From contig CAYRUR010000002.1 of the NCBI GenBank assembly GCA_964427615.1, forward strand, positions 81,847-145,846: 64,000 bases of DNA, in the 5' to 3' direction. Numbering within the stretch: position 1 is the first letter of the stretch; each line of letters opens with the position of its first letter. Below, piece by piece: positions 1 to 56,073 of the stretch. Origin of the DNA: an uncultured Gammaproteobacteria bacterium. GTDB taxonomy: Bacteria > Patescibacteriota > Microgenomatia > Levybacterales > GWA1-39-11. Both the position numbers and the translations under genes were made by a program. The notes beneath the pieces are model-generated. The model was not told the DNA's origin and did no database searches. It saw only the letters and a program-made list of their open reading frames with translations.

Positions 1-196
1 GAATTCGGTTATCTTTCTTTTCAACGTGTCCCTCAATTTTTGATACAGAGCCAGAACCATAAAGGTGAAGGTGAAACTCGGGAACACTAACATTTCTATG
101 CTCAACTTTTTGTTTAACGAACAAGCCGATAATTGTAACTGTAACTCCAACGACCCTAATAAGAATCTCAATTAGGTTAAGCGATATGTTTTCCAT
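1..196 (-). CDS. hypothetical small membrane protein, N-terminal portion only (gene runs off the window start)
   Basis: ATG at 196-194 on minus strand opens a frame with no stop down to position 1; translation MENISLNLIEILIRVVGVTVTIIGLFVKQKVEH... contains a hydrophobic helix; absent from ORF track because no stop codon in window. Confidence 0.25.
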   Translation of the reverse strand, partial: MENISLNLIEILIRVVGVTVTIIGLFVKQKVEHRNVSVPEFHLHLYGSGSVSKIEGHVEKKDNRI

Positions 197-423
197 AAGC
201 TAAGCTTCTTTTATAATTTTTTTTAAATTTTCTTACCTGTATCTTCTATCTCCACACTTATTAACTTTTGTTGCTTTCAACTTATACTAAAAATATGTCA
301 AGCAATCAATACTTGAGAGCTCAATCTTACTACAATACTTCTATACAGAAGTGTGCTTAAAACGTTATTAGAAATTGAAATCAGCAAAATTAACTCAACC
401 AATAGCAGTTGCTCTTTATAAAA

Positions 424-497
424 TGCTATACTGAAATAGAGATGGGTAAGAAATCGAAAATTGCTGTTTTTGTCTTTATTGCCATTGATATACAACA
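424..497 (+). repeat. copy 1 of ~73-bp direct repeat: duplicated cyoA promoter (TGcTATACT) plus first 18 codons; 442-504 encodes remnant MGKKSKIAVFVFIAIDIQQS-stop
   Basis: near-identical (1 indel, 1-2 mismatches) to 5645-5718 at the real cyoA start; read directly from sequence. Confidence 0.8.
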
Positions 498-533
498 ATC
501 TTAAGAATACCCCTTTTAATAACACTCCTACAC

Positions 534-1736
534 TTAGACAATTTCCTTCAGAACCTCAATAAATCTATCAATTTCATCTTCAGTGTTATAAAAATGAAGA
601 CTCACCCGTACAGAATCATTTAGTTGATCACCACTCCCTGTGCAATGTGTACCAGTACGCACATACATGTTGTTGCTGTCTAGAATAAAACCAACTTCCT
701 GTGAAACCATATTTTCAATATTGAACGCAATAATGCCATAACCAACTGCGCATCTACAAAATGCAATTCCAGGCAAGAATTCAACTTTATCTAAAGCTCT
801 TAATTTTCCGAGTAAATATTGGCTCAAATGTACTATTCGCTCTTGAATCTTCTCAATTGAAACTTCGTTAATAAAATCTATTGCTTTACCGAGTGAAATA
901 ATTCCAGCAAGATTTTCTGTTCCACCTTCCAAAAGATAGGGTAACTTCTTATAGGTAGTATTTGGTATATCAGATACAGTAGTTCCTCCGCCAACCAAAA
1001 ATGGATAAATTTGATCATGTATTCTTTGATTGATCCATAGAACACCTATTCCTGTTGATGCAAACATCTTATGACCTGAAAAACTAACAAAGTCTACTCC
1101 TAACTCTTGAACGTTCACTGGAATATGACCAATACTTTGAGCAGCATCAAGAGAGATTAAAATATCCTTCCTAGTCTTTTCTCTTATCACCTCAACATCA
1201 GTTTTGACACCATACACATTGTGAACGTGGGTTAGTGCAATAAGACGAGTTTTTTCCGTAACCTTTGATAAAACGTCTTCAACGTTTGCATCTCCTGCTG
1301 AAGTATTTTTGAAAGGAACAATTTTTATCTGGATACCAAATGTTTCTAAGGTGTTTTTAAGATTTATCCAAGGTAATACGTTAGAATCATGGTCTTCAAA
1401 ACAAACCATAATTTCATCATCTTTTTTCAGGTTATGTAATCCCCAAGAATATGCGACAGTATTAAGACTCGCTGTTGCACCTAAGGTAAAAATAACTTCA
1501 TCACAAGAGTTTGCATTAATAAAGTCTTTAACTTTTTCTCTTACTTGTTCAACCTCTCGTGTTACCTTATTGGCAATTACATAGCTACCCCGACCAGCAT
1601 TTGCACAGTATTCTGTAAAATATTTATTGATAGCATCTATTACTACTTTTGGCTTTTGAGTTGTTGAAGCATTGTCAAAATAAATGACCTCTGGATTTGA
1701 TACAAAAAATGGAAATTGATCTTTAAGATTCTGCAT
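534..1736 (-). CDS. class V aminotransferase-fold cysteine desulfurase (SufS/CsdA-like)
   Basis: 400 aa; PLP-lysine motif SGHKM, catalytic-loop Cys in RTGTHCTGS, overall SufS-like architecture; 14-nt overlap with upstream gene. Confidence 0.8.
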   Translation of the reverse strand: MQNLKDQFPFFVSNPEVIYFDNASTTQKPKVVIDAINKYFTEYCANAGRGSYVIANKVTREVEQVREKVKDFINANSCDEVIFTLGATASLNTVAYSWGLHNLKKDDEIMVCFEDHDSNVLPWINLKNTLETFGIQIKIVPFKNTSAGDANVEDVLSKVTEKTRLIALTHVHNVYGVKTDVEVIREKTRKDILISLDAAQSIGHIPVNVQELGVDFVSFSGHKMFASTGIGVLWINQRIHDQIYPFLVGGGTTVSDIPNTTYKKLPYLLEGGTENLAGIISLGKAIDFINEVSIEKIQERIVHLSQYLLGKLRALDKVEFLPGIAFCRCAVGYGIIAFNIENMVSQEVGFILDSNNMYVRTGTHCTGSGDQLNDSVRVSLHFYNTEDEIDRFIEVLKEIV

Positions 1737-3072
1737 TATGTAATTCTCCTATTTTTGCAGGCTTAACTTTTTCTAAAGACAACCCTGCGTCTCTCCATGC
1801 AACAATTCCACCTTCAAGATTATGAGCGTGATAACCTTTGGATTGCAGATACACAACATATTTTTTTGATTGTTCACCAACTGGACAGATAAATAAGACA
1901 GCCTGCTCTTCACAAAAAGGCATATTCCCATCTAATATTTTCACCAAATGTTCTTGAGGAATGTTAATTGATCCTTTTATGTGGGCTGTCTTAAAAGCTA
2001 AATTTGAACGAATATCTATAATGATTGGATTGTGTTCCTTAATCCATTCCTGGACATTTTCTAAGTTTACAGCCGGAGCTTCTAGGCATTGTTCTTCTGT
2101 AATATTTGCAATGCTATCAACTTTGGTTTTTTCACCAAAAACTTCGGGTTTTCGCTCCTTTATATAAGAAATATAGTATTCAAATCTGTCACAAGCAACG
2201 AAAACAGCAGTCTTTTTTTCAGTAAGTTGTGAATCTATCTTCTTAAGATATTGCAGAGTACCTTCAAATGATGCTCCACTCGTTGGCCCTGCTAAAATTC
2301 CACATTGTCTGATAAGAGTTAACATGGCATCAATTGACCTTCTTGAGTCTACCTCTTCTATAGATTCATAAAATTCTTTATCAAAAAGACCTACTTCCCA
2401 CATTTCAGTAATGGTTCTAATTCCTGGAATGTAGTCGTCTGCTGATGAAACAATGCCTACACTTATAAGCTCAGGATTTTGTTTTTTCATATACATTGCT
2501 GTTCCTCGTGTAGACCCTGTTGTTCCAAGTCCTCCAAAGAAGTAATCAACTTTGCTTAAATCATCAGTAATTTCCTTACCTGTAGTTGCATAATGAACCT
2601 CAATGTTTTTTTCATTTGTATATTGGGTTGTGTAATAATACTTATCTTGATTTTGCGTAACAATATTGTCTATATAAGTAAGAGGATCATTTGGATCTGT
2701 AGGGTCAGGACATTCACTTTTCCCAGGAAGCTGTTCTATCTCTGCTCCCATAACTTGTAAGATTGCTTTTACCTCTGGAACTTTAATCCTATTGGTAATT
2801 GTCTTAAAGGGAATACCATAAATTGAGGCAATTGCTTGCAAGACTTTAGCTGTATTCCCACTTGATGATTCAAGAATTGTTTGATTCTTTTCTTTAATAC
2901 TTTGAAGGTCATCTTTAATCATTGCCCAACCAATCCTATCTTTTACTGACCCAAAGGGATTATAAAACTCAAGTTTTGCATATAGGTCAATATTCTTGAG
3001 ACCATGTACTTTGGGGTCAATTTTAAGAAGTGGTGTATTTCCAATCAATTCAGTTATATGTTGATAAATCAT
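1723..3072 (-). CDS. cysteine synthase/cystathionine-beta-synthase family PLP enzyme (fold type II) fused to C-terminal rhodanese domain
   Basis: 449 aa; GSVKDRIG PLP-lysine motif and SSGNTAKV glycine-rich loop of CysK/CBS family; C-terminal ~100 aa with rhodanese active-site Cys (CPVGEQS); start ATGA overlaps stop of next gene. Confidence 0.75.
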   Translation of the reverse strand: MIYQHITELIGNTPLLKIDPKVHGLKNIDLYAKLEFYNPFGSVKDRIGWAMIKDDLQSIKEKNQTILESSSGNTAKVLQAIASIYGIPFKTITNRIKVPEVKAILQVMGAEIEQLPGKSECPDPTDPNDPLTYIDNIVTQNQDKYYYTTQYTNEKNIEVHYATTGKEITDDLSKVDYFFGGLGTTGSTRGTAMYMKKQNPELISVGIVSSADDYIPGIRTITEMWEVGLFDKEFYESIEEVDSRRSIDAMLTLIRQCGILAGPTSGASFEGTLQYLKKIDSQLTEKKTAVFVACDRFEYYISYIKERKPEVFGEKTKVDSIANITEEQCLEAPAVNLENVQEWIKEHNPIIIDIRSNLAFKTAHIKGSINIPQEHLVKILDGNMPFCEEQAVLFICPVGEQSKKYVVYLQSKGYHAHNLEGGIVAWRDAGLSLEKVKPAKIGELHNAES

Positions 3073-4517
3073 AGTTGTTCCTCCAGAAGGTAGGGATTGT
3101 ACTGTTCATCTTCAAACCATAAGAACTTATTGTTCCTCTTCACAACTGCTATTTTTTTTGCTATTTGCTGTTGAATAGTTGCAGATTCTGTAAAATCCAT
3201 ATTGTAGGCAGCAGTATTTACAAAAATTACCAAATCTCCAACCTCAGGAAGTTGTCTTATAAAAGTTTTATGTTTGTAGATAAAATCACTCTCAAGACAT
3301 AAGTTACCAATAAAATAAACCCCATAATCTCCTTCTTCCTTAGTTATATTTTTGTAGATGATAATCGGATCAAGCATCATTTCCTGATCAGTGGAGGCTA
3401 AATTTGAGCGATTCATATCCAATCCAATTAGAATTTCACCTTGAGGAGACTCTTTAACAAAATTTACTTTTGCAATGGTAATACCTGCTTGATTTAATAA
3501 TGATCTTCCTGGTTCAATAACAAGCTGCATCATTATTTCACTGAGAACATCTCCTGCTGATAGATTGTCGTATGAGGAAAGTTTGGTAGATAAAATCTCG
3601 TCTAAATATTCTGCTCCTGCTTGTTTTGTGAAATATTCATAAAAATTAGTAGCTCCCCTAATAACATTGCCCTCATTTCTAAATCCAAAGTTTGTATTAT
3701 GCCAAGTAATTGATGGAATCTTTCCTAAAGCTGCTTGTTGCAAGCTACCTATAAAATCTGTCCACTCTTTTTCATCTGCTATATAGCATATTTTAAAACC
3801 TCCACCAATATTTATAATCTGAGGATTTAACCCAACTTCTTGAAACTTTTCTAGCATTTGGATTAAATTTTCTAATGCAATTGTCTTCTCTTGAGGTGTA
3901 TTTGCATCAAGGTGATAAGAAAAACCTTGAAAGTTAAAAACCTTCCGATTCTCAAGCAGCATATTAGTAACTTTCTTATAGTCTTTAATATCTATCCCAA
4001 ATCTAGAATCTTTTGGAACTATTTTTGTATCTTCCGAACTAAAACCGCCAAAACGAATGAGCGTTTTTACTGATTCTTTATGTTTAATCTTTTTATGTAA
4101 AAGAATAATTTGTTCTAATTCAGAAAAGTTATCAACTTGAATTAGACACCTTTGTTGGATTGCAAGTAATAAGAAAGCTAGATTCTTAGGCCCAGTTACT
4201 TCTATTTCTCCTCCTTGATAACCACTGGCTAAAGCATCTATTAATTCTTTTTCTGATGCAGCATCAATTAGTATTCCTTCATAGTGGGCTTGCTTAACAA
4301 AAGCTTTGGATTTATTAGCTTTGTGAGCATAATAAATCTTTCCTTTTAAGTGGTGTTTTTCAAATATCTGCTGTAAAGATGCTATATTATCACTCAATTT
4401 CTCAGGAAAAATTATATTCAAAGGAGAACCAAAACAATTCAGGAGTGTAGTAATAGTTGATTGCTCATTTATGAATTCCTTAACGAGAGGATCAAGAATA
4501 GGAGTTAATTTGATCAT
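3069..4517 (-). CDS. PLP-dependent decarboxylase, fold III (Orn/DAP/Arg decarboxylase family 2)
   Basis: 482 aa; YAHKAN PLP-lysine motif, GGGF and EPGRSL motifs typical of group IV decarboxylases. Confidence 0.7.
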   Translation of the reverse strand: MIKLTPILDPLVKEFINEQSTITTLLNCFGSPLNIIFPEKLSDNIASLQQIFEKHHLKGKIYYAHKANKSKAFVKQAHYEGILIDAASEKELIDALASGYQGGEIEVTGPKNLAFLLLAIQQRCLIQVDNFSELEQIILLHKKIKHKESVKTLIRFGGFSSEDTKIVPKDSRFGIDIKDYKKVTNMLLENRKVFNFQGFSYHLDANTPQEKTIALENLIQMLEKFQEVGLNPQIINIGGGFKICYIADEKEWTDFIGSLQQAALGKIPSITWHNTNFGFRNEGNVIRGATNFYEYFTKQAGAEYLDEILSTKLSSYDNLSAGDVLSEIMMQLVIEPGRSLLNQAGITIAKVNFVKESPQGEILIGLDMNRSNLASTDQEMMLDPIIIYKNITKEEGDYGVYFIGNLCLESDFIYKHKTFIRQLPEVGDLVIFVNTAAYNMDFTESATIQQQIAKKIAVVKRNNKFLWFEDEQYNPYLLEEQL

Positions 4518-4519
4518 AG

Positions 4520-5476
4520 TTACTTCTGGGGATATTGAAAAGTAACATCAATTTGGTCAGAAATATCTCCATATGCATTAACTATGTAATCTTGGGCAAC
4601 ATATTTTTTATGTAACTCATGGAGTAAATGAAGCTTCTTTTCTCTATCCTCACCTTTCCTTTCTATTAGCTCAACAATTCTCTCAAACAATGCCAACTCT
4701 TGCTCTGATAGAATAGCGATGTCTAATGGAATATCTTGTTGTCTAGCTTGTTTAATTTCCCTCTTCAGCATAAATCCGCCTAGTAACTTATCACCAATCT
4801 TTTGTTTCAAATATTCTAAATCAGCCTCATCTTCTATCTTATTTCCAACTACGTAGAGATTTTCACCTACTCCTGCGTCTTTTGCTAATTGCATGTATTG
4901 TTCATAGACAGAAGTCCCTTCAGGAGTAGGTTCAATTACTAATATTATTGCATCAAACTGTGCATGAAGTGTATTTGAGAATGCATCTGTACCAGCAACC
5001 ATGTCAGATACAATCCACTCATCTTTTTTAAGAACAGTGTGGGAAAGAATATTTTCAAAAATTGCTAAATTTGTATGATAGCAAGCTGTACCAATTTCAT
5101 CACTATCATACGTTCCTACAAACATGTAATAGCCATTATCGGCAAATTTGTGAGCAAATTTTTTTATTAAGTAATCTTCTTTATCTATACTAACTAGACT
5201 TGAACCTTTTCCAGGAGGAGTTGTTTTAACAATGTGTTTATAATCTTTAATTCTATTATTATCCCCTTTTAAGTGCTTACGGATTAATGCGACATTACTA
5301 TGTTCAGATAGAGCAAGATCAGGGTTACGTTCTATACCAAGTAATCCTGAAACATGGATATTAATATCGGCATCAATCGCTAAAACCGTCTTATTATTTC
5401 TAAGTAAGTACTGGATAAATAAGGAAGTAGTTGTACTTTTTCCAGATCCACCTTTTCCAACAAATGCTATTTTCAT
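4520..5476 (-). CDS. SIMIBI-class P-loop NTPase (MinD/ParA/CooC/NifH-like deviant Walker A)
   Basis: Walker A VGKGGSGKSTT; likely start MKIAFVGKGG at 5476 (track ORF extends to 5539); 2-nt gap to upstream decarboxylase stop. Confidence 0.6.
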   Translation of the reverse strand: MKIAFVGKGGSGKSTTTSLFIQYLLRNNKTVLAIDADINIHVSGLLGIERNPDLALSEHSNVALIRKHLKGDNNRIKDYKHIVKTTPPGKGSSLVSIDKEDYLIKKFAHKFADNGYYMFVGTYDSDEIGTACYHTNLAIFENILSHTVLKKDEWIVSDMVAGTDAFSNTLHAQFDAIILVIEPTPEGTSVYEQYMQLAKDAGVGENLYVVGNKIEDEADLEYLKQKIGDKLLGGFMLKREIKQARQQDIPLDIAILSEQELALFERIVELIERKGEDREKKLHLLHELHKKYVAQDYIVNAYGDISDQIDVTFQYPQK

Positions 5477-5627
5477 AACTATAAATGCAATAGAATTGCA
5501 TTTAGTATATGCGAGTGACTCGCATTTGTCAATCCACAAACAGTTAAAACATTCCGAATAAATCTAAATAATTAAGTTGATCTCTGCTTTGAATGTTCCA
5601 ACGGATAAATTCATAAAGGGGATTGTA

Positions 5628-5656
5628 TTCAAATGGTTTCTACAAAATGCTATACT
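5628..5656 (+). promoter_or_regulatory. putative sigma70-type promoter of cyo operon: -35-like TTCAAA (5628-5633), extended -10 TGcTATACT (5648-5656); ATG only 8 nt downstream, so mRNA is leaderless or near-leaderless
   Basis: sequence inspection; no Shine-Dalgarno room before ATG at 5665. Confidence 0.45.
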
Positions 5657-5718
5657 GAATAGAGATGGGTAAGAAATCGAAAATTGCTGTTTTTGCCTTT
5701 ATTGCCATTGATGTACTT
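5645..5718 (+). repeat. copy 2 of ~73-bp direct repeat (native cyoA promoter and 5-prime end)
   Basis: matches 424-497. Confidence 0.8.
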
Positions 5719-6591
5719 CTAGTACTATGGCTCCTGCTTCATGATGCTACATTCCCCGTTCTGCATCCGAATGGTGCCATAGCCATACAAGAGCGGAATC
5801 TTTTTGTCTTTGCCATAGTGCTGGCACTTAGCATTATTCTTCCGGTATTTATCATGACTGCCATTATTGTCATGCGCTATCGTAAAGGAAATACCAAGGC
5901 CTCCTATACCCCCAACTGGAATCGTAACAGAAAATTGGAGGTTCTCTGGTGGATTATTCCCAGCACTATTATCTTTATCCTGGCTGTTGTTACCTGGTAC
6001 ACAACCCATGCACTTGATCCATACAAGCCACTTGCTAGTAACACTAAGCCTATGACCATTCAGGTAGTAGCTCTGCAATGGAAATGGCTTTTTATCTACC
6101 CTGAACAAAATATTGCTACGGTAAATTATGTGGTGTTTCCTGAAAAAACACCGCTCACGTTTGAACTCACAGCAGACGCACCCATGAATTCACTGTGGAT
6201 CCCTCATCTGGGTGGACAGCTCTATGCTATGGCAGGTATGGTTACAAAGCATCACTTAATGGCCAATGAAACTGGTGAATTCCCAGGCTCATCTGCTGAG
6301 ATCAGCGGAGAAGGATTTGCGAGTATGCGCTTTACCGCCAAAGCAACAACAAGCGAAGAATTCGAGCAATGGGTAGAGTCAGTCAAGTCTACTGCTACCC
6401 CCCCACTTGATCAAGCCACATATGATACGTTGGCAAAACCAAACACCCATCCTTCTCCTACCTTTTATGCATCAGTCGAGAAGGATATGTATAATAAAAT
6501 AGTCATGAAGTATAAGCCTTCTAACAACATGCCACAGAATCACAAGATGAACAACGATACATCCATGCCATCAAGTCCTGAGATGCACTGA
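5665..6591 (+). CDS. cyoA: cytochrome bo3-type quinol oxidase subunit II
   Basis: 308 aa; two N-terminal TM helices; region NSLWIPHLGGQLYAMAGMVTKHHLMANETGEFPGSSAEISGEGFASMRF closely parallels E. coli CyoA and lacks the CuA Cys ligands (quinol, not cytochrome c, oxidase). Confidence 0.85.
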   Translation: MGKKSKIAVFAFIAIDVLLVLWLLLHDATFPVLHPNGAIAIQERNLFVFAIVLALSIILPVFIMTAIIVMRYRKGNTKASYTPNWNRNRKLEVLWWIIPSTIIFILAVVTWYTTHALDPYKPLASNTKPMTIQVVALQWKWLFIYPEQNIATVNYVVFPEKTPLTFELTADAPMNSLWIPHLGGQLYAMAGMVTKHHLMANETGEFPGSSAEISGEGFASMRFTAKATTSEEFEQWVESVKSTATPPLDQATYDTLAKPNTHPSPTFYASVEKDMYNKIVMKYKPSNNMPQNHKMNNDTSMPSSPEMH

Positions 6592-9760: not shown

Positions 9761-10627
9761 ATGCTTCTTTCTATTAAAAAATACTATTCACTCACCAAAC
9801 CAGGCGTTTTATATGGCAACGTGCTGACTGGTGTTGCTGGTTTTTTACTGGCCAGTCGAGGCAACTTTGACTTTCTCTTGTTCTTGGCCACTATTATGGG
9901 TATGTCATTTGTTATTGCCTCTGCTTGTGTACTCAATAACTATCTGGATAAAGATATTGATAGCATTATGGAGAGAACCAAAAAAAGAGCCACTGCAAAC
10001 GGCAGCGTTGCAGGAAAAAATGCTGTCACTTTTTCTACTTTCTTGGGGTTGTTAGGATTTTTGATTTTATTCTTTTATACCAACTGGCTCGTGGTAGGTA
10101 TTGGTATCGTTGGCTTTATTGACTATGTACTGTTGTATGGTATGTTATCCAAAAGGCTATCAGTACATGGGACACTCGTGGGCAGCATCTCTGGTGCTAT
10201 GCCTATTCTTGCTGGTTATACTGCAGTAACCGGTACACTTGATATGGGAGCCATATTAGTTTTTCTCATTCTTTTCTTCTGGCAAATGCCTGAGTTTTAT
10301 TCTATTGCTATCTATCGCAGAGATGAATATAAAGCAGCAGGTATTCCGGTGGTATCAGTAGTAAAAGGAATACACAATACAAAAATGCAGATATTCTTCT
10401 ACACGTTTGCTTTTGTAACAACAACTATTCTTCTGAGTTTATTTGGGTACACGGGATATAGTTATCTACTCGTTATGCTGTTACTTGGACTGTATTGGTT
10501 GTGGCTTGCTGTAAAAGGTTTTCGGACAGCAGATGTAAATAAGTGGGCACGTCAGATGTTTCGCTTCTCACTCGTTATGTTATTGGTATTCTGTCTTATG
10601 ATTTCAATAGATGTACTTTTACCATAA
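9761..10627 (+). CDS. cyoE: protoheme IX farnesyltransferase (heme O synthase, UbiA family)
   Basis: 288 aa polytopic; NNYLDKDIDSIMERTKKRA UbiA-type aspartate-rich motif; operon position. Confidence 0.85.
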   Translation: MLLSIKKYYSLTKPGVLYGNVLTGVAGFLLASRGNFDFLLFLATIMGMSFVIASACVLNNYLDKDIDSIMERTKKRATANGSVAGKNAVTFSTFLGLLGFLILFFYTNWLVVGIGIVGFIDYVLLYGMLSKRLSVHGTLVGSISGAMPILAGYTAVTGTLDMGAILVFLILFFWQMPEFYSIAIYRRDEYKAAGIPVVSVVKGIHNTKMQIFFYTFAFVTTTILLSLFGYTGYSYLLVMLLLGLYWLWLAVKGFRTADVNKWARQMFRFSLVMLLVFCLMISIDVLLP

Positions 10628-49260: not shown

Positions 49261-50058
49261 TTACTTCTTATTAACAATAAGGGAAAGAAGAAAAAGAAAA
49301 AGAGCTATCAAAACAATAGATCCTCCTGCTGCCAAATCAAAGTAAAAGGACATAACTACACCACTTATCACAGAAAAAATAGAAATAATCTCAGCAATTA
49401 CAATGGTGTGCAAGAAATCTTTTTTAAATTGTAAAGCAGTAATAACCGGAATAACGACCAGTGCGGAGATGAGCAAAACACCAAGAATAGGAATAGCCAG
49501 AGCGACCGTAAGTGCTGCTAGAATAATAAAGAGAATATTAATAAAGGTTACCGGAATTCCACCAACACGTGCTGATTGTTCGTCAAAAGATACATATACC
49601 AACTCTTTAAAAAACGCCACTACCAACCCGATTATGACAATTCCTAAAATTGCAATACGCACGACATCTGTTTCTCTCACCGCTAAAATGCTACCGAACA
49701 AAAAATTAAAAAGATTTGTATTAAATCCATTGGCAAAGCCTATCAAAACAACTGCCACCGCAAGGCTTCCTGATAGAAAAATAGATAGTGCTGATTCTCC
49801 ATATACTCGTTTGGAAATACGCAATCGTTCAATAGCCACTGATGAAAAAACAGCGGCAATCATCGCAGTAAGCACTGGACTTACACCCAGTAAAAGCCCT
49901 ATAGCTACACCTGCCAATGACACATGAGAAAGAGTGTCAGCAATCAGCGAATAACGACGCAATACCAGAAAAATACCGATAAGAGGAGCAATTACTCCTA
50001 TCACGAGTCCTGCTTGAAGTCCTCTAATAATAAAATCGTATGCAAAAATATCAATCAT
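49261..50058 (-). CDS. metal (Zn/Mn) ABC transporter permease
   Basis: 265 aa polytopic; operon with ATPase and SBP. Confidence 0.75.
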   Translation of the reverse strand: MIDIFAYDFIIRGLQAGLVIGVIAPLIGIFLVLRRYSLIADTLSHVSLAGVAIGLLLGVSPVLTAMIAAVFSSVAIERLRISKRVYGESALSIFLSGSLAVAVVLIGFANGFNTNLFNFLFGSILAVRETDVVRIAILGIVIIGLVVAFFKELVYVSFDEQSARVGGIPVTFINILFIILAALTVALAIPILGVLLISALVVIPVITALQFKKDFLHTIVIAEIISIFSVISGVVMSFYFDLAAGGSIVLIALFLFLLSLIVNKK

Positions 50059-50822
50059 AATATATGTGGACCCGCTACATATTTAATATCTCTTCCATAC
50101 AACTTTTCCAGATAATTCCCTTTTACAAATGTTTCAGTCGCACCATGATACACTAATGTTTGGTTAATACAGGCAATTTCCGTAACCTCATTTGCGACAA
50201 CTCCTATATCATGAGAAACCAAGACTAATGTGAGGTTTAACTTTTGATTCAATTTTCTCAATAAAGTATAAAAGTCTATTTGATTTTTCACATCTACTCC
50301 TGCTGTGGGCTCATCCAGAAAAATAATTTCCGGTTCTCCTGCTAAAGCACGTGCAATGAAAACTCTCTGCTGCTGACCACCGGACAAATCACCTATTCTT
50401 CTCTTAGCAAATTCCTGCATTTCCACTTGTTCCAAAGACCGGTCTATAATTTTTCTATCTTCTTGCGTCAACCAATGAAACAAACCTTTTTTGGCATACC
50501 GTCCCATGGCAACCACTTCTTCAACAGTAATAGGAAATCGGGAATCAAAATTGTGAAATTTTTGAGGAATATAGCCTAATTTTGATTTATCTTTAAATCG
50601 ATTAATAGGTTGTCCAAAGAGTTTTATCTCTCCTTCCTTTATAGGTAAAAGACCTAGTATGAGTCTTAACAAGGTTGACTTTCCTCCTCCGTTGGGGCCG
50701 ATAATTCCTAAGTAATCTCCTCTATGAATTGCAAAAGAGATATCTTTTAACACCAACTCTTTGGCATAAGAAAAAGAGATATGAGAAATTTCTATGATAT
50801 TTTCTGAATGATCTAGTTGCAT
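50055..50822 (-). CDS. metal ABC transporter ATP-binding protein
   Basis: Walker A GPNGGGKST, signature LSGGQQQR. Confidence 0.85.
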   Translation of the reverse strand: MQLDHSENIIEISHISFSYAKELVLKDISFAIHRGDYLGIIGPNGGGKSTLLRLILGLLPIKEGEIKLFGQPINRFKDKSKLGYIPQKFHNFDSRFPITVEEVVAMGRYAKKGLFHWLTQEDRKIIDRSLEQVEMQEFAKRRIGDLSGGQQQRVFIARALAGEPEIIFLDEPTAGVDVKNQIDFYTLLRKLNQKLNLTLVLVSHDIGVVANEVTEIACINQTLVYHGATETFVKGNYLEKLYGRDIKYVAGPHIL

Positions 50823-51736
50823 ACCAACGCCTTTTCTAAATTCGCAAGATTAGCTTCCATGATAGTGAAATAATTTTCACCTTTTGCTTCATCTTCTGGT
50901 GTGAGTCCTTCAGCCGGATTTAAAACCAATGTTTCTACTCCTGTCTCTTGAGCTAGAGTTTGAGAAAATCGTGGACTTGTTAACTCTTCGAAAAAAATAT
51001 ACTTTACCTGCTTTTCCCGCACAAATGTTGCTAATTCAGCCAATTTTCGTGCAGAAGGCTCTTCTTCAGGACTCAGGCCTGAGATAGCCACTTGATTCAA
51101 ATTATATTCCTGAGCTAAATAACCAAAGGCTGCATGAGCGGTTACGATATCTCGTTTTTGACAAGTCGCAAGACCTTGTCTGTACGCACTATCCAACTCC
51201 TGCAAGGAAGCAATTAGTTCATCTGCATTTTTTTGATAGTAAGAAGCGTTTTTCGGATCTTCTTTTTTGAAAGCTTCTGCAATAATTGCCACTTGATGCT
51301 GCGCAAGCTCTGGACTAAGCCATACATGAGGATCAGTACTATGCTCTGCAAAAAGATTTTCATTTATCACAAGCACCTCAACATCCTTGCCTATCAAATT
51401 TTTTTGCATTGCAGGTGCCCAGACCTCAATATGACCATTCAGTAATAGAAGATCACTATGCTGTATCTTTACCACGTCTTGCGTTGTTGGCTCAAATTCA
51501 TGCGCCTCCACTCCTGCCGGAGTAATATTAATAACATGAGCATGATCACCCCCAACTACAGAGGCAAAATAATAGAGAGGGTATAAAGAAGTAACAACAT
51601 CTATTTTTCCTGTGTTACTGGAGTTATTACTCTTCTGAAGCAATAATTGTCCACCAAAAGTAAAGACAAAAACTGCGAAAACAATAACAATAAGCAAGAT
51701 AAGAATTCCTTTATTTTTAACTTTCATTCCTGACAC
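50813..51736 (-). CDS. metal ABC transporter substrate-binding protein (ZnuA/cluster A-I family)
   Basis: 307 aa; HVWLSP motif, signal anchor. Confidence 0.75.
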   Translation of the reverse strand: MSGMKVKNKGILILLIVIVFAVFVFTFGGQLLLQKSNNSSNTGKIDVVTSLYPLYYFASVVGGDHAHVINITPAGVEAHEFEPTTQDVVKIQHSDLLLLNGHIEVWAPAMQKNLIGKDVEVLVINENLFAEHSTDPHVWLSPELAQHQVAIIAEAFKKEDPKNASYYQKNADELIASLQELDSAYRQGLATCQKRDIVTAHAAFGYLAQEYNLNQVAISGLSPEEEPSARKLAELATFVREKQVKYIFFEELTSPRFSQTLAQETGVETLVLNPAEGLTPEDEAKGENYFTIMEANLANLEKALVCN

Positions 51737-52146
51737 CTTTCACAAACTCCAAAAAATTCTAATGAGTGACGCTTTACTAAAAAGTTTTTTTCCTGTTCTA
51801 CATTTTTTTCAAAATCTTCCACAACACAATCTGCAATATCCTGAATTGTTCCACATACTTCACAAATCAGATGATGGTGATCGGGTCTTCCAGCTAACTC
51901 ATACCTGAATTTTCCCTCATACAGCTGAATTTGTTTTGCCAGCCCTTTATCCGTAAAAGCATTGATAATACGAAAAACAGTTGCTTGATCCACCTGAATA
52001 TCATTTTTCTGCAGATGCTCTTTTATCATTGAGACATCAACAGGATTATCTGTTTTTTCCAAATATTTAAGAACTGCAATACGTGCAGGAGTCGCACGCA
52101 AAGATATTTCTTTTAACTCCCTTCGACAATCGTGTCTATTTTTCAT
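51724..52146 (-). CDS. Fur-family metalloregulator (Zur-like)
   Basis: 140 aa; HHHLICEVCG...CERC. Confidence 0.75.
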   Translation of the reverse strand: MKNRHDCRRELKEISLRATPARIAVLKYLEKTDNPVDVSMIKEHLQKNDIQVDQATVFRIINAFTDKGLAKQIQLYEGKFRYELAGRPDHHHLICEVCGTIQDIADCVVEDFEKNVEQEKNFLVKRHSLEFFGVCERCQE

Positions 52147-52187
52147 CCTATCTGGACTATATCACACATGCAAGTAAGTTGCAATAA

Positions 52188-54042: not shown

Positions 54043-56073
54043 ATGAATTGCTCAATGCTTATGAAAATGTTATCTAAAAAGACTCTTCACCTTGCACTCC
54101 CTTCCTTCCTTATTCTTGCTATAGCTGCTATTATCACATCTAACAACACTAATCTCTTCAACTTTCAAGCTGATGCTGATACTGCAAATCCAGAGCCAAA
54201 AGTAATGAATAACCTTTTGTCTAACCCTTCCATGGAAGTCGAAGTAAACGGCGAAGTCGAAGCATGGGGAGCCCGTACATCAAATAATTGGGATAACACA
54301 ATTCATCACTATGGCAATGCTTCTATGCATGTAGTACCTGCTACTGACGCTTACCGCTACTCACATAATACTATTACTCTAGAAGCCGGAAAAACTTATG
54401 TACTGCAAGGCTGGGTTAAAACAGAAAATGCTTCTGGCAGTGGGGTATATATTCGTTATGCCCAAACAAACCCTACTCCAACTAAAGTCTTTACCACTGA
54501 AAAACTAAATGGAACCAATGGCTGGACAAAGGTCACCAAAACCTTCACTCTTCCAGCAGATTATGCAGCAGGACGAGTTGATATTGTTTGGGAGATAACC
54601 GCAGGAGAAGCTTGGATAGACGACGTTGCTCTTTGTGAAAATGAATGTATAGAAGGAATAGCAAATAAGCTTGCGAATTCTTCTATGGAAGTAGTAGTAA
54701 ATGGTGATGCTGAAGCATGGGGAGCGCGAGCAACCAATAACTGGGACAACGCTGTCTACCATTCCGAAACTGCTTCCATGCATGTCGTGCCTGCAAATGA
54801 CGGCTACTACTACGCACATCAAACAATTACTCTTCAAGCAGGATCCACCTATACTATACAAGGATTTATAAAAACAGAAAATGCTTCTGGAAGTGGGGTA
54901 TATATTCGTTATGCTCAAACAAACCCTACTCCAACTAAGGTCTTTACCACTGAAAAACTAACTGGAACTAATGATTGGACAAAGGTCACCAAAACCTTCA
55001 CGCTGCCTGCAGATTATGCAGCAGGACGAGTTGATATTGTTTGGGAAATCAATGCTGGTGAGGCTTGGATTGATGATGTTATGCTCTGCGAAGGAAATGG
55101 TCCTTGTGCCCAAGATACTACTGCTCTCAAAGTATGTGATGAATCAATCCATAACAAATATGTAACCACCGGCCCTGACGGACAGACATATGCCACCTGG
55201 CATCCATCCACAGACCCTGAAACAGGTTGTATCTTCGGACATGAACATGGCAACAATCCGGAAAGCGTTTTGCCAGGATACAAACCAGCATTTGGATACA
55301 CTGCAGGTCGCATGGGCATGACAGAACCACATAATGGATTTAAAGTGTATGCTTTCACTGACTACGATGATGAGAGCTGGGTCGTAACACATCACTTTGG
55401 CACAGCCGGTAGAGGCACGCTTTGTAACCAATTCCATACCATAGATGTTGCCGTAGGACAAGCTAGTGGAGAAGTACTCGCTGATCTACACACTATGGCA
55501 GATCATGGACGTTCTCGATTCTTTGATGGTCAATACATGACACCAGCAGAATGCCCTGATCAAGTAAATATCAATTCCTTTGGTATTAGAAGAATCCCTA
55601 TGTCTCCTGATGGATATGAGCCATGGTTGGTAAATGATAAGATACATCATCTTGGACTCAATGTTGCGCTTAACATCCTAACTTCAGATGCCATCATGGG
55701 CTGTGAAGATCCTACCTGTAGTGTAATGAAGCGCAATGGTACTAACACCGGTTCTCGCAGAAGATTTCAAGCGACAGTAGGATCAAACGGCTTGCAAATT
55801 AACGAAACTGTTACTACTACCAACAGCGGTATCTTTTATACTGACTCTATGGGACATGAGATGAGAATGGCTACTGATTCTGACTCTGTTATGCAATATA
55901 TCAAACCAGGATACCATGGTGAGGCAACTATTGCTCGCAGTGACCAATTGGACGCAGCTCGCGGAGGATGCTGGTACTACAACGGACAAAATGCACCTAT
56001 GGGTTGCTCAACAGGAGACTTGAACGGTGCAGATCCTCTACTCTTACCAACAGAGTTAATTGGATCTAACTAA
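54043..56073 (+). CDS. secreted protein: signal peptide, two tandem CBM-like beta-sandwich modules (~150 aa each), then ~330-aa Cys/His-rich domain of unknown function
   Basis: 676 aa; internal repeat ...ENASGSGVYIRYAQTNPTPTKVFTTEKL...TLPADYAAGRVDIVWEI... present twice. Confidence 0.7.
   Translation: MNCSMLMKMLSKKTLHLALPSFLILAIAAIITSNNTNLFNFQADADTANPEPKVMNNLLSNPSMEVEVNGEVEAWGARTSNNWDNTIHHYGNASMHVVPATDAYRYSHNTITLEAGKTYVLQGWVKTENASGSGVYIRYAQTNPTPTKVFTTEKLNGTNGWTKVTKTFTLPADYAAGRVDIVWEITAGEAWIDDVALCENECIEGIANKLANSSMEVVVNGDAEAWGARATNNWDNAVYHSETASMHVVPANDGYYYAHQTITLQAGSTYTIQGFIKTENASGSGVYIRYAQTNPTPTKVFTTEKLTGTNDWTKVTKTFTLPADYAAGRVDIVWEINAGEAWIDDVMLCEGNGPCAQDTTALKVCDESIHNKYVTTGPDGQTYATWHPSTDPETGCIFGHEHGNNPESVLPGYKPAFGYTAGRMGMTEPHNGFKVYAFTDYDDESWVVTHHFGTAGRGTLCNQFHTIDVAVGQASGEVLADLHTMADHGRSRFFDGQYMTPAECPDQVNINSFGIRRIPMSPDGYEPWLVNDKIHHLGLNVALNILTSDAIMGCEDPTCSVMKRNGTNTGSRRRFQATVGSNGLQINETVTTTNSGIFYTDSMGHEMRMATDSDSVMQYIKPGYHGEATIARSDQLDAARGGCWYYNGQNAPMGCSTGDLNGADPLLLPTELIGSN

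Follow-up and report, generated by a model that had tools for sequence, protein, structure and literature searches.

Why should the promoter and first codons of an oxidase gene stand at both ends of another operon? The question is raised by a 64,000-nucleotide stretch of contig CAYRUR010000002.1 (GenBank assembly GCA_964427615.1; hereafter the window), which comes from an uncultured bacterium. Here the start of cyoA, the gene for ubiquinol oxidase subunit II, occurs once at the head of the gene itself and once more, as a truncated copy, on the far side of a cassette of four genes that are read from the opposite strand. The two copies form a pair of direct repeats. They may best be understood as the scar of a single recombination event that placed the four-gene operon (494-5640) upstream of cyoA and duplicated 77 bp, a reading to which we give a probability of about 0.55. 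An earlier interpretation of this DNA, made from its letters and hereafter called the sequence-only reading, had proposed that a "sulfur cassette" was inserted into or next to the cyo promoter region, with duplication of the promoter.

The repeat pair and the start of cyoA

Direct reading, a repeat finder and local alignment concur in placing the direct repeats at window positions 417-493 (copy 1, 77 nt, plus strand) and 5641-5716 (copy 2, 76 nt, plus strand), and local alignment finds no similarity past 493 and 5716. Three substitutions (T419/C5643, T473/C5696 and A490/G5713) and one extra A in the 434-436 run of copy 1 separate the copies, a divergence of approximately 5%. They share an exact core of 38 nt (435-472, identical to 5658-5695). 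The sequence-only reading had given the pair as 424-497 and 5645-5718, with 1-2 mismatches, one single-base indel and identity over the first 18 codons. Near-identity with one 1-nt indel stands, but the repeat begins 7 nt earlier at its left end and finishes at 493/5716, the mismatches number three, and the shared coding sequence comprises codons 1-17 only.

A repeat of this kind is well above chance expectation. When up to three mismatches are allowed, the 38-mer has exactly two sites in the window, and none of 100 dinucleotide-preserving shuffles yielded a match. The only other exact repeats of at least 20 nt in the 64 kb lie within the open reading frame (ORF) 54043-56073. This frame encodes a 676-aa protein and contains an internal duplication (54418-55027, with an offset of 453 nt or about 151 aa) that is rich in exact 20-mers. 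The protein has no NCBIfam match, and Tandem Repeats Finder reported no array in the frame.

Copy 2 is the true start of cyoA, as had been claimed, and provides the functional promoter -10, the start codon and codons 1-17 of the gene (5665-6591, plus strand, 308 aa). The product passes the curated cut-off of TIGR01433 (278.6 bits against 266.2) and ten relatives align with it from Met1. The gene stands within a cyoABCDE operon, in which cyoB, C, D and E follow and reach position 10627 (COX1, COX3, COX4_pro and UbiA genes). The cyoA promoter (5628-5656, plus strand) is made up of a -35 element, TTCAAA, that lies outside the repeat, a 17-nt spacer and the extended -10 TGCTATACT at 5648-5656, followed after 8 nt by the ATG at 5665. 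This spacing suggests that the cyoA mRNA would be leaderless or nearly so.

Both copies hold the extended -10 and the ATG, in agreement with the sequence-only reading. The extended -10 of copy 1, TGCTATACT (424-432, plus strand), lies 9 nt before an ATG at 442. Unlike copy 2, however, copy 1 has no recognisable -35 and its site was not listed by the promoter scan. The ATG opens a remnant ORF, MGKKSKIAVFVFIAIDIQQS (442-504, plus strand), of 20 aa, which closes with TAA at 502-504 beside the 3' end of the desulfurase-type gene, as had been described. The encoded peptide matches CyoA residues 1-17 save for two non-synonymous differences (V11A and I17V, copy 1 having V11 and I17). The fates of the two copies thereafter are those by which a scar can be recognised: copy 2 continues into full-length cyoA, and copy 1 loses similarity after 493 and stops after 20 aa. 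From the end of copy 1, a unique spacer of 40 nt (494-533) with no similarity elsewhere leads to the stop codon (534-536) of the SufS-like gene. A BLAST search of positions 1-540 against all collected loci returned nothing except the repeat.

How typical is this promoter layout of the organism? A survey took in the 45-nt stretch that precedes each ORF in the window, together with all TGnTAnnnT-N5-10-ATG sites. The survey placed this motif exactly at the starts of at least seven other substantial genes (13943, 17038, 27291, 33193, 33244, 38885 and 52146). The first genes of transcription units have an extended -10 (TGnTAnnnT) just 6-9 nt before the ATG, and their mRNAs would thus be leaderless; a Shine-Dalgarno sequence (GGAGG) is found mostly at internal operon genes. 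From this division of signals the organism is predicted to use leaderless extended -10 promoters, and the repeat would therefore hold a complete cyoA core promoter together with the start codon.

The repeat was also examined in an independent k=31 per-run assembly (Logan, SRR7082976), where the CysK-like protein of the cassette and CyoB are each encoded on Logan contigs. One contig (L001) corresponds to window 443-5687 at 100% identity, and another (L082) begins at 5666 and matches the window without a difference for 12,908 nt. The first of these break points lies 30 nt before 473, where the sequence past the core of copy 1 begins, the second (5687) 30 nt after 5657, where the sequence ahead of the core of copy 2 ends, and the third (5666) 30 nt before 5696, where that past the core of copy 2 begins. 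These are exactly the places at which a de Bruijn graph with k=31 should break on meeting an exact repeat of 38 nt. The contigs carry the copy-specific bases of the right arm of copy 1 and of both the left and right arms of copy 2, so both variants exist in the reads. The sequence-only reading had itself warned of an assembly artefact; collapse or duplication by the assembler is thereby excluded for three of the four junctions.

The four-gene cassette, here and elsewhere

The four cassette genes are co-oriented on the minus strand, overlap or abut one another, and fill positions 534-5476. The first encodes a CooC/MinD-type P-loop ATPase (4520-5476, 318 aa, PF01656) whose sole PDB match is CooC (3kje, 1e-9). 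It is followed by the gene for a pyridoxal phosphate (PLP)-dependent decarboxylase that is LysA-like and belongs to the ornithine/diaminopimelate/arginine family (3069-4517, 482 aa, PF02784 and PF00278). The nearest PDB entries of this protein are diaminopimelate decarboxylase and D-ornithine/D-lysine decarboxylase. The third product is a CysK/CysM/SbnA-like PLP enzyme with a C-terminal rhodanese domain (1723-3072, 449 aa, PF00291 and PF00581), which has relatives of up to 81% identity. The fused rhodanese domain is foreign to the CysK and CysM families. A rhodanese-domain protein with a relationship to this gene is part of a solved structure, PDB entry 8H4H; no paper citing the entry was found in the literature. 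The last gene encodes a SufS-like class-V aminotransferase (534-1736, 400 aa, PF00266 at 6e-103).

The labels "desulfurase" and "sulfur cassette" given by the sequence-only reading hold as family-level resemblance, but the SufS, CysK/CysM and LysA models all score under the NCBIfam curated cut-offs. The SufS-like protein reaches 373 of the 475 bits required by TIGR01979 and 270 of 661 for PRK09295. The CysK-like protein scores 168 against 344 bits for TIGR01136, 152 against 394 for TIGR01138 and 139 against 351 for TIGR01139, and the LysA-like protein 135 against 298 for TIGR01048. For the SufS-like gene, what is established at the level of sequence families is membership of the class-V aminotransferases only.

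Upstream of the ATPase gene lies a sigma-70-like promoter (5504-5532, minus strand; TTGACA-17-TATACT) with 11 of 12 consensus matches. Two palindromes, ATGCAATAGAATTGCAT (5485-5501) and ATGCGAGTGACTCGCAT (5509-5525), together form a putative Fur/Zur-family operator (5485-5525). The same type of box is present at 52168-52184 (related box ATGCAAGTAAGTTGCAA), upstream of the Fur-family gene of the window (51724-52146), which heads a znuACB-type operon (49261-52146). In three of the related loci, boxes of the TGCAAC-N-GTTGCA type are located between the Fur and P-loop genes (L083, 1253-1275; L093, 5601-5617; L085, 3583-3631). A palindromic box, of either the ATGCAA-N5-TTGCAT or the TGCAAC-N-GTTGCA type, is conserved at the cassette and at the Fur-family/znuACB operon. 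The shared box suggests a single Zur/Fur-type regulon that would take in both. The cassette is probably a portable, self-regulated unit within a regulon of this type. The proposal of a self-contained operon bracketed by repeats is borne out by its own promoter and operator and by the recurrence of the four genes, in unchanged order, at other loci.

These other loci number 30 and represent several phyla. The set of four, in this order, is complete in approximately 10 and partial in approximately 20, most of the latter being cut by contig ends. They comprise L083/84, L085-87, Alkaliphilus metalliredigens (L088), a widespread organism (L089-91) and JGI contigs (L092-L112), and the module thus ranges from Patescibacteria-like contigs to A. 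metalliredigens. It usually lies beside a Fur-family gene, or beside DtxR, ZnuABC or CbiMQO genes. In its closest relatives (L083 and L093), a Fur gene occupies the position that cyoA has in the window. Positions 329-748 of L083, upstream of its Fur gene, contain a 66-nt unit in three tandem copies, and also a pair of 57-nt repeats spaced 176 nt apart. A search of the literature found no paper describing the four-gene module.

Is the association with cyo a general one? No cassette was found at any of 80 cyoA loci from GTDB species genomes, and neither cyoA nor cyoB at any of the 30 cassette loci. Among the loci compared, a cassette beside cyoA is unique to this genome. Flanking direct repeats were likewise absent from the 12 other cassette loci examined for them; the window scores 2e-29 in the same test. 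With neither the adjacency to cyo nor the flanking repeats seen elsewhere, a one-off event in this lineage is indicated.

Origin of the repeats

Two routes are the likeliest to have led to the present arrangement. In the first, circular DNA bearing a short cyoA' segment would have integrated by a single (Campbell-type) crossover. In the second, a linear fragment from a related strain would have entered by homology-facilitated illegitimate recombination (HFIR): homology would have tied one of its ends to cyo, and an illegitimate junction at cyoA codon 17/18 (493|494) would have fixed the other. By either route the right-hand side would keep a whole cyoA with its promoter (copy 2), the left-hand side would be left with a shortened promoter and a 17-codon stub (copy 1), and the expression of cyoA would be preserved. 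Both routes explain why copy 2 is intact and copy 1 sharply truncated, why the copies have diverged, and why their differences fall outside the core. All four differences do so (P = 0.066 under uniform placement), a pattern consistent with two diverged parents having crossed over inside the core. The same core would permit a RecA-type deletion of exactly 5,223 bp, restoring a single functional cyoA start.

The base composition of the two sides also differs. The four cassette genes have the four lowest values of GC content at third codon positions (GC3) among the 57 genes of the window (0.219-0.230; P = 2.5e-6 by rank alone), and the highest belong to cyoD, cyoA and cyoB (0.46, 0.43 and 0.39, respectively), so the repeat marks a compositional junction. 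This hints that both blocks were imported, from different sources. The window CyoA and CyoB are nearest to metagenome-assembled genomes labelled Saccharibacteria, Chlamydiota and "Gammaproteobacteria", and the high GC3 of the cyo genes is consistent with the lateral acquisition reported for cyo operons of candidate-phyla bacteria (PMC8407418). Codon usage was also considered as strong evidence of a foreign origin and was dropped, the GC3 rank being striking but the distance in relative synonymous codon usage (RSCU) being no outlier.

Insertion next to the cyo promoter with duplication, as put forward by the sequence-only reading, thus draws support from real repeats, a self-contained operon and a unique position, but no empty site was found, and we infer direction and mechanism from the end product. 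Several further points weigh against a recombination scar. That the differences cluster outside the core falls short of statistical significance. In RSCU the cassette stands 0.57 from the rest of the window, a value that ordinary four-gene blocks also show (0.49 +/- 0.14), and the distance of the cyo block lies inside the same spread; composition therefore backs a foreign origin of the cassette weakly. Neither an empty site nor a donor arrangement was found in GTDB genomes, in 5.8 billion proteins or in JGI metagenomes, and no close relative is available. In the 80 GTDB species loci the closest CyoA proteins are 58-60% identical, and the two closest of these loci (L002 and L064) have unrelated upstream neighbours. 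An exact 28-mer from the core has no match in JGI metagenomes, where the 21 loci with cassette relatives include none with cyo. The best CyoA among the 5.8 billion proteins is 58% identical, and without a relative above this value there is no means of finding an empty site. The event may have had either polarity, with the cassette entering the cyo promoter or with a 77-nt patch being copied beyond a cassette that already adjoined it. Lastly, the junction that leads from the left flank into copy 1 (1-442) is present only in the window's own assembly, and the window probably begins at a contig end. The latter is suggested by an ORF at 1-196 (minus strand) that runs off the start of the window and whose 65-aa N-terminus has no match, itself included, in the 5.8-billion-protein database, in which other window proteins are present.

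Could the repeat instead have arisen where the cassette already stood? If the cassette were an established neighbour of cyoA, a tandem duplication of the cassette plus the cyoA start followed by deletion of one cassette, or a repair patch templated from 5.2 kb away, would give the same final structure. Such a local rearrangement requires no mobility genes, and none is present: Pfam and NCBIfam searches of the cassette genes identify only PLP enzymes and a P-loop ATPase, with no integrase, transposase or recombinase among them. The unremarkable RSCU distance of the cassette is also in its favour. Two events are needed, however, or else a patch mechanism that to our knowledge is poorly documented in bacteria. 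Rearrangement in place also leaves unexplained both the loss of the Fur-family gene that adjoins the cassette in its closest relatives and the avoidance of the core by all differences between the copies. We regard it as unlikely, though it deserves to be kept in view.

Site-specific integration is improbable to a greater degree. Here the repeats would be the attL and attR sites of a non-autonomous islet, comparable to a cis-mobilisable element, that would be mobilised by an integrase acting in trans, would target the 5' end of cyoA and would bring a replacement promoter and N-terminus. An identical core with diverged arms and a preserved target gene is classical att-site architecture, and all three are seen in the window. 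The 5.2 kb nevertheless encode no integrase or recombinase, the 12 other cassette loci lack flanking repeats, and the 5' end of a gene is atypical as an integration target. Cassette relatives were not found on the viral contigs of IMG/VR, and plasmid records gave only two Streptomyces replicons of 1.6-2.8 Mb with 45-50% identity.

What, then, of copy 1 itself? Its extended -10 and ATG stand in the leaderless layout of real gene starts in this window, which makes it reasonable that copy 1 might still fire, as the sequence-only reading had suggested. A leaderless transcript may start there and enter the 3' end of the cassette as antisense RNA, a course that the arrangement of the promoter elements makes plausible. 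The search for intrinsic terminators predicted none, including between copy 1 and the SufS-like gene into which it points. It could be argued from this that copy 1 has been kept for a function, as an antisense promoter or a small leaderless ORF that ties regulation of the cassette to the control of cyoA. That view, which could go together with any of the rival origins considered here, is improbable. Copy 1 is without a -35 and its spacing is shifted by 1 nt, and the two non-synonymous changes and early stop are what decay would give. The RNA fold around copy 1 is also not more stable than that of shuffled sequence (z = +1.5). Searches for transfer RNA (tRNA), transfer-messenger RNA and Rfam families found none in the window.

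A problem of connectivity would be of a different nature. The assembler could have threaded into one path a free circle of 5,223 bp and a chromosome on which the cyoA start occurs once, or a mixture with a cassette-less strain, and a k=31 graph cannot separate the integrated form from an empty site plus circle. The two ends of the Logan contig that carries the cassette have 22 nt in common, and the repeat begins only 417 nt from the probable contig end. However, the 164-kb source contig passes through both copies, and to the left and right of each core it shows the bases specific to that copy, which favours integration, and on usual assembler settings a k-mer of at least 41 spanning A434-T473 should exist in the reads. 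Even in a mixture, the cyoA' fragment would be physically attached to the cassette and the duplication would be real. We consider such a mixture very unlikely. Equally unlikely is the most elaborate proposal. In it the cassette would be an islet, non-autonomous but able to excise precisely, that recombines via the 38-nt core at the leaderless promoter and start of cyoA and brings a replacement promoter and N-terminus, so that the oxidase gene would at all times stay active; the copy left behind would act as an antisense promoter that ties the Fur/Zur-box sulfur/PLP operon to oxidase control.

Comparison with known systems

If the repeats are indeed a recombination scar, they date and orient one gene acquisition in an uncultured low-GC bacterium: a laterally acquired cyo operon would have come first, and a metal-regulated operon would then have recombined in at the cyo promoter without inactivating it. 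The repeat further predicts a reversible, scar-free loss of the cassette that could be sought in population data. The locus would be a new example of a known signature, the excisable recombination scar, and not a new principle. The conserved four-gene cassette with its Fur box is arguably of greater interest than the scar, and the leaderless promoter architecture is a useful by-product of the analysis.

Direct repeats of target sequence around an insert are also produced by transposons. Transposon target-site duplications are 2-15 nt in length, however, whereas the repeat here is 77 nt, no transposase is present, and the repeat finder detected no terminal inverted repeat pairing the two boundaries. 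The attL and attR sites of genomic islands, prophages and cis-mobilisable elements are closer in form. They too are imperfect repeats with an identical core around accessory genes, and their target remains functional by means of a duplicated end. The window differs from them on three counts: no integrase is present, the targeted site lies at the promoter and 5' end of a protein gene and not at a tRNA or a 3' end, and the cassette occurs elsewhere without repeats.

With respect to gene content, a lead (and only a lead) is offered by the staphyloferrin B (SbnA/SbnH) and ethylenediaminedisuccinate (EDDS) clusters, which are Fur/Zur-controlled and combine a CysK/SbnA-like enzyme with a LysA-like decarboxylase. 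The cassette resembles them in its SbnA-family match (TIGR03945, 1.5e-45, below the cut-off), in its LysA-family decarboxylase, and in the Fur-family regulator or metal transporters that adjoin it in relatives. It differs in lacking SbnB and an NRPS-independent siderophore (NIS) synthetase, and in possessing a rhodanese fusion, a SufS-like enzyme and a CooC-like ATPase.

Campbell-type integration and HFIR during natural transformation provide the remaining comparison. For this locus neither a donor molecule nor a plasmid backbone nor a related strain is known, the segment in common has just 77 nt, and the mechanism is read from its end product. In such systems the differences between the copies reflect the divergence of donor and recipient, and recombination between the repeats can remove the insert again. 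As in these systems, the insert in the window lies between direct repeats as long as the shared segment, with one copy on an intact gene and the other truncated.

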